NCBI GenBank assembly: GCA_034722955.1
Contig: JAYEOM010000111.1
Coordinates: 1 to 32,574 of the forward strand
Source: Campylobacterota bacterium
GTDB taxonomy: Bacteria; Campylobacterota; Campylobacteria; Campylobacterales; Sulfurovaceae
Direction of reading: 5' to 3'
Length of the DNA: 32,574 nucleotides
A program made the translations under genes and the position numbers. Below are positions 27,215 to 32,574 of this stretch, in pieces (positions within the stretch are counted from its first letter, which is position 1; every line of letters starts with the position of its first letter). The notes below the pieces were generated by a model that made no database searches, had not been told where the DNA came from, and saw only the letters and a list, made by a program, of their open reading frames with translations.

Positions 27215-27319
27215 GTCTATTTGCTCTTTTTGACGAATCTTCCCACCAAAAAACCCGACAAACCCCCATCTGATCGCTAATGGAGCAAATAACTGCCTAT
27301 TATGTAGGCACGGAATTAC

Positions 27320-27348
27320 TTGACTTATCGCTATTGTTGTGATATAAT
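27320..27348 (+). promoter_or_regulatory. sigma70 promoter of the transposase
   Basis: TTGACT-17bp-TATAAT with extended TG, 30 bp before the ATG at 27379. A TGCCTA/TAGGCA hairpin lies just upstream (27294-27310). Confidence 0.75.
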
Positions 27349-27467
27349 CCCATTAAAATACCTAAACGGATTGACTATATGTATATTGCATTTACTAAAA
27401 AGAAATATAAAGATACCTATCATAAGCAGACTCTGTTAAGAGAGAGTTATAGAGAAGATGGAAAAGT

Positions 27468-27487
27468 CGAGGTACCCCTTGAGGGTA
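27468..27487 (+). repeat. 20-bp inserted hairpin repeat, copy 1 (CGAGGTACCCCTTGAGGGTA)
   Basis: Interrupts G-K-V-K-T-R; 19/20 identical to copy 2. Confidence 0.9.
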
Positions 27488-28188
27488 AAAAACAAGAACT
27501 ATTGCAAATTTTACCAATCAAGCCAAAGAGCAAGTAGAGGCTATAGCTATTGCATTAAAGAGTAAAGGCAAAGCTCTTATCACAACAGATAACCAATCTC
27601 AAGGTTTGAGTGTTGGGTTTAGTATGATTATCTTGTTTGTTATGAAACAGCTAGGTATGGTACGAATCTTAGGTAAAAGCTTTGAAGCAAAAGTAGCAAT
27701 AGTATTAATAGCAGCTAGAATAACTATACAAAGTAGTAGACTCCAAGCACTACATTGGGCAAAGGAAGAAGATAAGATATTAGATATATGTAACTTTACT
27801 GCAGATGAAAAAGATAAACTAAGTGATAAAAATATCTATCAAGGTTTAGACTATCTCTATGATAACCAAGAGAGTATAGAAGATAGACTCTTTAAAGCCT
27901 ATTATAAAGATAATCCACCTAAAAGAGTATTCTATGATGTAACAAGCTCCTTCGTAGAGGGAGAGTATGAAGATAGTGAGTTAGTAGCTTATGGATACAA
28001 TAGAGATAAGAAACAAGGAAAGCAACAGATAGTAGTAGGACTGCTCACAGATGAAGATGGACACGCTATATCTATCCATACCTACCCAGGTAATACCAAT
28101 GATGTAAAAACATTTACAGACCAACTAGATAAACTCAAAAATAGATTTAAACTAGAGAGTATCACTATAGTAGGTGATGGTGGTATGA

Positions 28189-28208
28189 CGAGGTACCCCT
28201 TGAGGGTG
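28189..28208 (+). repeat. 20-bp inserted hairpin repeat, copy 2 (CGAGGTACCCCTTGAGGGTG)
   Basis: Interrupts G-M-I-K-S just after the VGD motif. Confidence 0.9.
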
Positions 28209-29182
28209 TAAAGAGTGAAGATATAGTAAAGATAAGAGAGTTAGGATATGACTATATCACCTCTATAGGTAAACCAAGTATTCAAAAGCTTATAGATGAT
28301 AAAGATAGCAAAATCAATATGAGTCTCTTTGATGAACAACTTCAAGAGGTGATAGATGAAGAGAAAGGTATACGATATATACTAAGACAAAACCCCATAA
28401 GAAGAGATGAGATAAGAGAGACAAGAGAGTCTAAAATCAAAAGAGTAGAAGCATTCATAGAAGAGAAACAAGAGTATTATAACAGTCACTATAGAGCCAA
28501 ACAAGAGACAATGATTGCTAATATAGATAAAAAGATAGCTTCACTCAAACTATCTAAATTTAGGTCATATAAGATAACATATCAAGAGGGTGAGTGTATA
28601 GTAGTAGCTAAAGACAATACTCAAACTATCAAAACAAAAGAGTTAGCAACAGTAGAGATTATCATAGACCAAGAGGCTAAAATAAAAGTAGCTCAACTTG
28701 ATGGTTGCTATGTTGTGACTACTTCACTTACCAATATAGACAAAGATACAAAAGAGGATATTCACACAGCATATAAAACACTTATCAAAGTAGAAAATGC
28801 CTTTAAGGCACTTAAAACTGAGTACCTTGAGATAAGACCACTCTATCTTAGAACAGACAGTAGAATAAAAGCTCATATCTTCTTATCTATGCTCTCTTAT
28901 AATATTGTACTAAAACTAAGAGGATATATATTCAATATGAACATTGATTTCAAATCAACCATAAGAAAGATCTCAAACATCACAACAGTAAAAAACACAA
29001 TTAACAAAACAATAGTTTACGAAACAATACCTGCTGTAGATGATAAGTTAAAAGAGTTATTTGATAGTATGAAGTTTAAATTACCTAATAGGATTTAGAG
29101 ATGTAGTGCGAAAGATTTATGAATTTTTTCAGCAAGTGCCGTGTTTGTGGGGTTTGTATTAGATTTTGGGTGGGAAGATTCG

Positions 29183-29382
29183 TTGGAACACAGAAATATC
29201 TACATCACTATTGAGCATAGTTTCTATGGCTTGATGGTCACCTCTATGGTTTTCACATAGAAGCACATCAACGCTTCAAACTGTTCTTAATCAGAAGCTT
29301 CTTTAAGGATGACTCTTTAATCTACCCCTCTATTGATGATATGCTAGTAGCCTGCTATCTCTATGCGTGGTTTTCTTGGCAT
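29183..29382 (-). pseudogene. RAYT/Y1 (IS200-like) transposase remnant, copy A, cut by the IS1634
   Basis: AAGGAG RBS, then MPRKPRIEIAGY*HIINRGVD*RVILKEASD*EQF, a RAYT-type N-terminus with stops. 29183-29332 matches 32425-32574 at 148/150. Confidence 0.8.
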
Positions 29383-29437
29383 CGGCTACTCCTTTGTGAG
29401 GATTGTAGCGTAGTTTAGATTATAGTAGCATTGACAT

Positions 29438-31586: not shown

Positions 31587-32117
31587 TCATACATTTTCCT
31601 CATAAATACTATAAAATCTTGGCGACGAAATATTATCTACCCTATGTTTAGAACTATTCCCTTTAAAATACTTATAAACTAAATCAAGTTGTTTGTTATT
31701 GCTTACATTTTTTATATAGTAATCATCTTCCCAAAATTGGCTATTCTTATTTAGTATTTTATTTATTTCTAATTGGCTTATAAATTTAATAGTTTCCACT
31801 ACAAAAGATAAATTCTTTTTAGGCATCATTAAAAGATGAATATGGTTTGGCATAATTGTATACGCAACTAAATCATAGAGTATCGTATCCTGTGATTTTA
31901 AAAGATTGTGTAACAATAGTAATATATTATTATTTAGATAAGCTCCTTCATTTGAGTCGTCAAGATATTTATCTGCTTGATATTGCTTTATTTTATCGGA
32001 TACATTTGGCTGATTTAAAATTTCATGCAGAGTAGTATCTTCACTATCAATAGTTCTAAAAGTAATAAACTTACAATGTTTATTTACTTCGGCATATGGC
32101 AAATATTTATTTTCCAT
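31587..32117 (-). CDS. Y1/HUH (RAYT-like, IS200 superfamily) transposase-like protein
   Basis: FITFR, YTIMPNHIHLL (HUH), FW...Y and Y..GN. Confidence 0.8.
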   Translation of the reverse strand: MENKYLPYAEVNKHCKFITFRTIDSEDTTLHEILNQPNVSDKIKQYQADKYLDDSNEGAYLNNNILLLLHNLLKSQDTILYDLVAYTIMPNHIHLLMMPKKNLSFVVETIKFISQLEINKILNKNSQFWEDDYYIKNVSNNKQLDLVYKYFKGNSSKHRVDNISSPRFYSIYEENV

Positions 32118-32202: not shown

Positions 32203-32574
32203 TCACTCCCTGCTCCTCTTAATCACCCCAAACACAGCAGGTTGTGATAACCCTAATACTTTAGCAATCATATGCTGAGAGTACCCTTGTTCATAAGCTT
32301 TGACTATTTTACTGTTTCGTTCTTGTAAGTTTTTTGTATCTCTTAGCATTTTTGTAAGTTTTTCAATATCTGGCTTTTTATCTATATTGGGTGCTTCTAT
32401 CAAAGAAGATGCTTTTTTTAACTCTTGGAACACAGAAATATCTACGGCACTATTGAGCATAGTTTCTATGGCTTGATGGTCACCTCTATGGTTTTCACAT
32501 AGAAGCACATCAACGCTTCAAACTGTTCTTAATCAGAAGCTTCTTTAAGGATGACTCTTTAATCTACCCCTCTA
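32203..32574 (-). pseudogene. RAYT-derived remnant, copy B: internally deleted, C-terminal HTH kept, runs off the window
   Basis: Same stop-containing N-terminal segment as copy A, joined to ...GYSQHMIAKVLGLSQPAV (HTH); the HUH core is missing. Confidence 0.78.

Follow-up and report, generated by a model that had tools for sequence, protein, structure and literature searches.

The window analysed here is a stretch of 32,574 nucleotides (contig JAYEOM010000111.1, positions 1 to 32,574, forward strand) from the assembly GCA_034722955.1 of a Campylobacterota bacterium of the Sulfurovaceae, a genome of 2.51 Mb in 140 contigs with 40% G+C (designated G000). It carries an insertion sequence (IS) with a transposase gene that is broken by two near-identical inserts of 20 nt, and these inserts, referred to as the 20-mer, are the subject of this report.

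The interrupted insertion sequence

The IS is bounded by 20-nt terminal inverted repeats (TIRs) that are 95% complementary to each other, in agreement with a sequence-only reading of the window that had described them as intact. It is an IS4/IS1634-like element with a DDE_Tnp_1 transposase, a class indicated by the Pfam DDE_Tnp_1 match, the TIRs and a size of ~560 aa; its placement in the IS1634 group is putative. Its features are as follows; a slash marks the point of insertion.

27233..29183, + strand: insertion sequence, 1951 bp, inactivated (TIRs; Pfam DDE_Tnp_1 on both large pieces; intact homologues L171 and L172)
27233..27252, + strand: left TIR, 20 nt, kept in L171 and L172
27379..27537, + strand: transposase piece 1, 52 aa as read, stop-bounded; the true frame stops at insert 1
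27468..27487, + strand: 20-mer copy 1, CGAGGTACCCCTTGAGGGTA (..GGGTA), at site AAAGT/AAAAAC; frame shifted after codon 30; absent in L171 and L172
27606..28211, + strand: transposase piece 2, stop-bounded open reading frame (ORF) of 201 aa with the first part of DDE_Tnp_1 (Pfam)
28189..28208, + strand: 20-mer copy 2, CGAGGTACCCCTTGAGGGTG (..GGGTG), at site ATGA/TAAAG; absent in L171 and L172
28319..29098, + strand: transposase piece 3, stop-bounded ORF of 259 aa with the remainder of DDE_Tnp_1 (Pfam)
29164..29183, + strand: right TIR, 20 nt, the inverted partner of the left

Both copies consist of CGAGGTACCCCTTGAGGGT followed by A or G and lie in the same orientation, on the + strand, at the positions first reported for them. 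The reading frame that begins with the ATG at 27379 is open for just 52 codons until its first stop, and copy 2 is followed immediately by a TAA stop in the incoming frame. Deletion of both 20-mers in silico gives a single 559-aa ORF ending at 29095. A protein search of 61 related genomes for intact homologues yielded L171 (558 aa, 73% identical over the query, in a 574-codon open frame) and L172 (563 aa, 67% identical, in a 575-codon open frame), and the restored ORF matches L171 at 386/559 positions with 1 gap column. The homologues are without exactly these 20 nt, and the claim that the two inserts are the only frame lesions holds. This copy of the IS is dead because each 20-mer landed in the transposase gene and shifted its frame; no second full copy of the IS is present in G000.

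Empty sites and read support

DNA alignment with L171 and L172 shows both window sites to be empty in these homologues, which read AAAGT/AAAAAC and ATGA/TAAA with exactly 20 nt fewer, and neither site has a target duplication, as had been surmised. There are no further copies inside the window beyond the two, again as the first reading had it, and one more exact copy elsewhere in G000, at C7:213-230, within a repeat of ~240 bp that resembles a miniature inverted-repeat transposable element (MITE). The copies of this MITE-like repeat on contigs C31 and C28 are empty (ATGATG/ATAACC) and align to the filled copy with a clean 20-column gap, and in a related genome (L015) the repeat is filled at the same site as in G000. 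Exact filled/empty pairs are thus available at three loci; target duplications are absent at those three aligned sites, and the boundaries are base-exact in all aligned pairs. An 88%-identical IS30 copy in genome G279 is also 20 nt shorter across the insertion site, as judged from alignment lengths. The MITE-like repeat itself (G000:C7:100-360; L001) has inverted ends of ~30 nt (..ACACCCYTGCCGTTCAATCTCCACTTTT), occurs as copies or solo ends on at least 15 contigs, and at C7 breaks an ORF that reads ..LFTGAGFS and has no Pfam match.

Insert 1 is present gap-free in Logan contigs of three runs from one study, each of which differs at 0-2 bases across the stretch that aligns, and insert 2 is covered by short high-depth unitigs only. 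No joint skipping exactly 20 nt, as an empty allele would give, occurs among the Logan contigs, which drop rare variants. One Logan contig (depth 489, with 29 nt on its shorter side) joins 27467 to 27672, with the break beginning exactly at the left edge of insert 1; this joint is probably derived from a repeat or from the DNA of a different organism. The GGTACC restriction site inside the 20-mer and its presence in metagenome-assembled genomes might raise suspicion of a library linker or of faulty assembly, but such an artefact is hardly credible: the 20-mer is also present in genomes of cultured isolates that were sequenced in unrelated projects (Clostridium spp., Thiomicrorhabdus arctica), occupies homologous sites in related genomes, has a fixed flank signature and is found in independent Logan contigs.

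Sequence, hairpin and target site of the 20-mer

Collapsing all fetched low-GC instances gives at least 79 non-redundant flank contexts, and the counts below refer to 79 of these. The consensus of the element is N1-G-R-G-G-T-R-CCCC-TTGA-GGGT-R, with N1 mostly C (65/79) and position 2 mostly G (66/79). A and G account for 49 and 27 contexts at position 3, for 41 and 38 at position 7, and for 69 and 10 at position 20, whereas positions 8-19 (CCCCTTGAGGGT) are invariant in 78-79 contexts; substantial variation is confined to positions 1-3, 7 and 20. The flanks are constrained as well, with G at -2 in 47/79 and A at -1 in 52/79 upstream, and T (44/79) or A (22) at +1, A at +2 (60/79) and A at +3 (51/79) downstream. 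Typical sites are thus ..GA/TAA or ..GA/AAA, the target is approximately D-G-A/W-A-A, and the TAAA-like tracts that had been noticed beside the window copies reflect a real target preference. The 20-mer therefore inserts as an undivided 20-nt unit that faces the same way with respect to its short target motif and produces no target duplication. With filled/empty pairs at three loci and 79 independent contexts, the proposal of an ultra-short sequence inserted repeatedly is sustained, and we consider it probable, if by no wide measure, that both inserts stem from a mobile, non-coding insertion element of 20 nt that disabled this DDE-type IS.

The insert is GC-rich in an AT-rich gene, as had been stated, with 60% G+C inside DNA of about 33-35% G+C. 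Shuffling the window leads to an expectation of 0.01 matches, with two or more matches in 0/100 shuffles. The hairpin TACCC-CTTGA-GGGTA, to which attention had been drawn, exists, with a 5-bp stem (4 bp for copy 2 folded as DNA) and a 5-nt loop, but it is weak: the DNA folds have energies of -3.4 kcal/mol (copy 1) and -2.8 kcal/mol (copy 2), with z about -1.6 against shuffles.

The ends of the 20-mer (CGAGG.. and ..GGGTA) are not inverted copies of one another. A constant length and lack of coding capacity could fit an excision footprint, the sequence-only reading's scar, in which a larger transposon departed and left 20 nt composed of its two ends, and IS genes often receive other elements. 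The two halves, however, are not found apart from each other: in G000 exact 10-mer halves occur together at the three full copies, with other matches being scattered singles with unrelated continuations, and in genomes G250, G252 and G253 the 11-mer halves occur almost only at full copies. At no locus does constant sequence run on from one side, and half-site searches retrieve no parent element. A footprint is thereby disfavoured, and we regard it as very unlikely.

Some copies of the 20-mer sit within larger secondary structures. The flanks pair with one another at -10 kcal/mol or below in 15/79 contexts, compared with 4.4% of mismatched flank pairs, although the overall shift in pairing is marginal (Mann-Whitney p = 0.08); about a fifth of the contexts are thus at the tips of pre-existing hairpins. 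In an Arenicella locus (L052:201-342) two 20-mers lie 124 nt apart, each topping a TCGCAT..ATGCGA hairpin in a tandemly repeated unit. Two Clostridium sp. loci (L158:1480-1560 and L151) contain tandem arrays of two or three 19-20-nt units per site, in which the later units begin with CATTG, not CGAGG, and a GGGTA-CATTG-TACCC palindrome arises at each junction.

Such tandem copies at a single site are among the observations that would suit a spread with no dedicated enzyme, in which an existing copy would serve as the source for rare template switches during replication or for short-patch conversion, guided by identical flanks of 2-3 nt on either side (GA .. TAA). A preference in both flanks rather than upstream alone, the low copy numbers and the failure to find an enzyme link are in keeping with it. 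Homology of 2-3 nt is, however, common to thousands of sites per genome and fails to explain why this one 20-mer, rather than arbitrary sequence, is present at no fewer than 79 sites in several phyla, and the boundaries are base-exact in every aligned pair. We judge template switching to be unlikely, though less so than a footprint, and favour a mobile 20-nt element.

Distribution across genomes

A search of related genomes, which had been proposed as a check, finds the 20-mer (one mismatch or fewer) in 11/250 genomes of the window's family, with 0 for a reversed control pattern. Scanning one genome per prokaryote species with the 18-mer core GRGGTRCCCCTTGAGGGT yields at least 120 loci. Among the matches listed, 78 loci lie in DNA below 50% G+C and contain 80 matches, of which 75/80 have C before the 18-mer, 80/80 have A or G after it and 43/80 have GA before that C. 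The corresponding values for the 42 high-GC loci are 22/42, 22/42 and 2/42, and these look like chance matches. By record title, the low-GC loci among the matches listed comprise 49 from Campylobacterota (Sulfurimonas, Sulfurovum, Arcobacteraceae and others), 11 from Clostridium or Bacillota, cultured isolates included, 10 from Gracilibacteria or Absconditabacterales, 6 from Gammaproteobacteria (Thiomicrorhabdus, Arenicella and one further) and 2 from Desulfobacterota.

Five genomes contain 18, 9, 7, 3 and 3 copies of the 16-nt core (one mismatch or fewer; control 0). The genome with 18 is G253, a Gracilibacteria-type genome of 1.5 Mb that uses genetic code 25, and in its order 16/121 genomes have a match. 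Viral contigs give 6 matches, none with the flank signature and all in DNA of 53-67% G+C. An Rfam search with 20 loci (E up to 0.01) finds no family for the recurrent contexts. A full-text literature search with 12-mers of the motif matches a single unrelated mouse primer paper, and nothing on the 20-mer appears where the literature treats small dispersed repeats (SDRs), repetitive extragenic palindromic (REP) sequences, REP-associated tyrosine transposases (RAYTs) or hairpin inserts, whether for these taxa or for transposase genes.

Landing places

In no fewer than 16 of the 79 contexts the 20-mer breaks or adjoins a gene that Pfam recognises as a transposase or integrase, and these genes belong to many families:

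DDE_Tnp_1: both window copies, L055, L089, L092 and L094
DDE_Tnp_4: L006 and L017
Zn_Tnp_IS91: L012
rve: L022 and L114
HTH_38 (IS30 type): L026
DDE_5: L098
HTH_Tnp_1: L033
IS110: L165
Phage_int_SAM_4: L122

Frequent landing points are A-rich stretches within transposase coding sequence and the tips of hairpins that were already present. The remaining contexts are intergenic, beside housekeeping genes such as ilvC, fabI, nifU, mdh, napD, ilvD, ftsY and dnaE, and no insertion within a housekeeping coding sequence is seen among the contexts. Because an insert of 20 nt always shifts the frame, its survival would be expected in dispensable DNA alone, and the enrichment in IS genes needs no special targeting. 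A filled IS can nevertheless increase in number: in G279, three filled IS30 copies that are 99-100% identical lie in different places, in addition to the shorter, 88%-identical copy. G252 contains three identical filled IS3 copies and no empty one, although the contigs that carry them may be redundant.

These landing places bear on the proposal that a host system writes the 20-mer into mobile DNA to disable it. All three G000 copies are indeed inside mobile DNA (the IS or the MITE-like repeat), 7 of 16 family-level hits are in Pfam-recognised transposase genes with 2 more in the MITE-like repeat, and two hits in one IS occur both here and in G253:C180. Most of the 79 contexts, however, are ordinary intergenic DNA beside housekeeping genes, survival in dispensable DNA accounts for the IS enrichment without targeting, and the three filled IS30 copies of G279 show that filled ISs still multiplied. 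G000 contains no template locus other than the inserted copies themselves, and no enzyme locus was found. A host counter-measure is therefore not supported, and appears to us quite improbable.

It is equally improbable that the inserts are neutral for expression, with the 20 nt removed from the RNA, or a -1 ribosome slip on the C run (C-CCC or C-CCU-UGA), so that transposase would still be made. A 20-nt insert does require a shift of exactly -1, a slip is conceivable for two of the three entry frames, window copy 2 and the IS30 copies enter in the frame that places CCC on the C4 run (hand-read), and a filled IS is found as several identical copies. Yet twelve hand-read transposase insertions are distributed 2/7/3 over frames 1/2/3, the commonest frame being one without a slip site and the slip-prone frames not being favoured, transposase in G279 could come in trans from the empty IS30 relative that is 88% identical, and housekeeping coding sequences, in which harmless inserts would be expected, have none. 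A mobile element that breaks the genes it enters remains our preferred account.

Intergenic copies are often nested in other small repeats, namely a Sulfurimonas element, a Clostridium intergenic repeat and a Sulfurovum block of ~90 nt. The Sulfurimonas element, which resembles a 5' untranslated region (5'-UTR), occupies ~110 nt before the match in L030, L035, L039, L047, L050, L054, L058, L085, L125 and L130, upstream of different housekeeping genes. It is built from a variable palindrome followed by GGGCTTCCTGCCGAAGGAAACCAAGCGTTAGCGTAG and by a stem with covariation between copies, at the tip of which the 20-mer sits; the element has no Rfam match and could be a structured 5'-UTR repeat. The flanks in the Sulfurovum block are conserved to the same degree as the insert, and selection on the insert cannot be inferred there because the entire block is itself a repeat.

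A second tiny insert was also observed. Locus L008:1427-1453 (- strand) carries an extra 27 nt (core GCCCTGAAAGAAATGCCCTTGGGGTAC), in frame, relative to the sister IS copy L006, which is without it. The observation extends to L082, L100, L199, L208 and L211, the same core is found in Thiomicrorhabdus and Arcobacteraceae loci, and diverged copies of it lie within a longer repeat on about 17 G000 contigs.

Relationship to a GTAG-headed REP

The sole near match to the 20-mer in G000 is at C101:28909-28926, where the sequence with its flanks is GT-AGGGGTACCCCTTGTGGGTA-CC and forms a GTAG-headed hairpin with an 8-bp stem. This hairpin is identical to the CGGGG variant of the 20-mer at 18/20 positions. 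The REP of G000 reads GTAG-GGGTACCC-CTTGT-GGGTACC, and comparison of the two shows the 20-mer as an apparent 3'-truncated relative of the GTAG-headed REP hairpin of the same genome; it looks like a REP hairpin with the GTAG head replaced and the distal 3' arm missing. About ten REPIN-like loci made of GTAGGGGTAYCCCCTTGTGGGTACCC and GTAGGGGCAATCCCTTGTGGTTGCCC are present in G000, with paired inverted GTAG hairpins at C10:24643-24700, C42:5091-5140, C66:1499-1540, C91:9838-9888, C101:28906-28930 and others.

The REP head GTAGGGGYAAYSCCTTGTG (family GTAGGGGYA..CCTTGTG) occurs in 39/131 genomes of the window's family that are at least 90% complete (control 0). The 19-nt head of this family is identical in the Gracilibacteria-type genome G253, and on such matches the GTAG REP family would be common to several phyla. 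In G253 a REPtron (L188, G253:C203:1-2413) contains a RAYT-like ORF at 341-958 with four in-frame TGA codons and four flanking GTAG REPs with this head, plus a fifth REP-like copy within the ORF at 722-747; this RAYT-like gene can be read only with TGA as a sense codon.

According to passages of PMC6006769, REPs have GT[AG]G 0-2 nt 5' of the hairpin foot, a stem of 7-20 paired nt and a loop of 2-5 nt. The window copies instead read GT-CGAGG and GA-CGAGG, and GTAG is present only in four full-hairpin 'class R' contexts (L004, L007, L013 and L056). The stem has 5 bp (4 in copy 2 as DNA) and the loop 5 nt. The true REPtron in G253:C203 carries GTAG REPs, not the 20-mer, and the copies of the latter number 3 in G000, all inside mobile elements rather than extragenic, with a maximum of 18 in any genome. 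The 20-mer thus departs from REPs in every structural respect tested, yet shares sequence with them. A CGTC tag was also considered, the flank and element start GACG being the complement of CGTC (excerpts of PMC3733652), and was dropped with the tag at the wrong end.

Search for a mobilising enzyme

The right end of the IS abuts a truncated Y1 transposase gene, so that the locus has three layers, with the 20-mer within the IS and the IS beside the Y1 gene. The Y1 features of the window are as follows.

29233..29397, - strand: first 55 codons of a RAYT-like Y1 (HUH) gene, truncated next to the right end of the IS (tblastn, 75% identity to the copy on C104)
31587..32117, - strand: Y1_Tnp (HUH) ORF, 176 aa, a candidate for the enzyme class only, with no link to the 20-mer (best NCBIfam model REP-associated tyrosine transposase, below cut-off)
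32206..32573, - strand: further RAYT-like Y1 gene pieces at the contig end (tblastn)

A 150-nt repeat (29183-29332 = 32425-32574) is part of a multi-copy Y1 gene family that ends many G000 contigs. Seven RAYT-like Y1 matches are present in G000, several at contig ends, and RAYT-like Y1 genes are also found in G252 and G253; the best model for these genes is again the NCBIfam REP-associated tyrosine transposase, below its cut-off. No REP hairpins lie beside the Y1 genes of G000.

Several observations weigh against reading the 20-mer as a mobile element, and particularly as one moved by such an enzyme. No mobilising enzyme is linked to it: no 20-mer-like sequence (four mismatches or fewer) lies within up to ~1.5 kb on each side of 12 Y1 genes in G250, G252, G253 and G254, the single Clostridium Y1 gene has unrelated end hairpins, and G251 (C. 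neonatale) has three copies of the 20-mer and no Y1 match. The Y1 proteins of high-copy genomes are only 23-42% identical across genomes, whereas the DNA core is identical across phyla. Examination of the 79 contexts by eye reveals no guide-to-target complementarity. Binding and cleavage by the RAYT of E. coli need GTAG (parts of PMC3479197), which the 20-mer is missing; under these E. coli rules it should not be bound. The 5-bp hairpin is no better than those of shuffled sequences, IS200/IS605 targets show no downstream T-A-A preference of this kind, and copy numbers are far under those of classical REPs.

Correlating the motif with candidate enzymes, as had been suggested, gives a divided result. 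Y1 genes are found in 9/11 family genomes with the 20-mer and 167/239 without (p = 0.32), a comparison that is uninformative because Y1 occurs in 176/250 family genomes. The REP family does accompany the 20-mer in the order of G253, in 4/12 genomes with it and 10/108 without (one-sided Fisher p = 0.03, uncorrected for kinship); the raw count was 7/16 and 8/105, and the final count drops the TTGT-type hits G311, G360 and G384 and the index genome G253. In the window's family it does not, with 2/6 and 37/125 of genomes at least 90% complete, which counts against the link; G155 (a REP-type hit) and G105, G118, G143 and G234 (below 90% complete) are left out.

With adjacency absent, co-occurrence uninformative or mixed and GTAG missing, an HUH tyrosine transposase (Y1, RAYT or IS200-like) is treated as a leading guess, which could well prove wrong, and not as a finding. 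What suggests a connection with HUH or RAYT enzymes is the 18/20 kinship to the GTAG REP and the presence of RAYT-like genes, not adjacency or consistent co-occurrence. Of the three options offered by the sequence-only reading, a minimal non-autonomous element fits best.

Proposed explanation and significance

We propose that the 20-mer has no enzyme of its own and that its movement, as single-stranded DNA, would depend on one acting in trans. Since IS and MITE copies tolerate it, they may carry it between genomes; riding in this way would explain both the near-identical copies in several phyla and the location of all three G000 copies in mobile DNA. The 20-mer is among the smallest insertion elements seen. 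More tentatively, it may be the smallest self-sufficient transposition substrate yet seen in bacteria, a fixed single-strand unit that would be cut out and pasted at GA/WAA by an enzyme encoded elsewhere, either a relaxed HUH tyrosine transposase or a class not yet tied to transposition, with one sequence reaching at least four phyla by way of the ISs that it breaks; we hold this extended form to be possible but doubtful.

If the proposal holds, the size floor of bacterial transposable units falls to 20 nt, and one selfish element uses others as cross-phylum vehicles while disabling them. It would also provide a simple substrate with which to test for the enzyme behind the movement of REP-like DNA, mobility being inferred and not shown for most REP systems (passages of PMC3479197 and PMC6006769). 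The element would bear on how decayed ISs and pseudogenes are interpreted when genomes are assembled from metagenomes; 20-mers will cause gene callers to split or truncate genes, and the motif can be screened for.

Comparison with known systems

The 20-mer shares features with several classes of small repeat. Among these are the SDRs of heterocyst-forming cyanobacteria, which Elhai et al. in 2008 (Genome Res 18:1484, cited in PMC3116915 and PMC3733652) reportedly described as hairpin-forming sequences of 21-27 nt, mobile as judged from filled/empty pairs, often nested, and with no known enzyme. The 20-mer also shows filled/empty pairs and nesting in other repeats. It belongs to other phyla, being common to several, has 20 nt rather than 21-27, and is not known to share a sequence with the SDRs. 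Rickettsia palindromic elements, yeast mitochondrial GC clusters and 'byp' elements are G+C-rich palindromic inserts in genes of A+T-rich genomes, and are in frame or bypassed so that the gene stays functional. Unlike these elements, the 20-mer has only 20 nt and frameshifts its host gene. RPE-4 and RPE-6 are mentioned as CGTC-type REPs in an excerpt of PMC3733652.

MITEs (reviewed in PMC10969869) resemble the 20-mer, as proposed here, in being non-autonomous and moved in trans and in that they can sit inside other elements, but they carry TIRs, duplicate their target sites and usually exceed 100 nt; the 20-mer has neither TIRs nor a target duplication. The single-strand 'peel and paste' elements of the IS200/IS605 family and their non-autonomous derivatives (parts of PMC6006769) insert, as the 20-mer seems to do, in an oriented manner 3' of a short flank motif, without duplication and with a hairpin near the end. 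They have two subterminal hairpins of 20-25 nt together with guide tetranucleotides (same source, in part), whereas the 20-mer has one weak hairpin in 20 nt total and shows no guide complementarity by eye. Its upstream motif is only D-G-A (G 47/79, A 52/79), its downstream flank is constrained too, there is no duplication at the three aligned sites, and no cognate TnpA was found.

The REP/REPIN-RAYT systems, as far as they are covered in passages of PMC6006769, PMC3479197, PMC3116915 and PMC3733652, differ in that the 20-mer has no GT[AG]G head, a 5-bp stem (REP at least 7), a length of 20 nt and no distal 3' arm, is present in low copy (1-18) and lies inside genes that it breaks, not flanking Y1 genes. 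It is also near-identical across phyla, whereas REPIN-RAYT systems are reported to be passed on mostly by vertical inheritance (bioRxiv 10.1101/2022.05.22.493013). Like REPs, the 20-mer is short, G+C-rich, hairpin-forming, non-coding, dispersed and oriented, with no target duplication, and we place it with the very small, trans-mobilised, REP-like elements.

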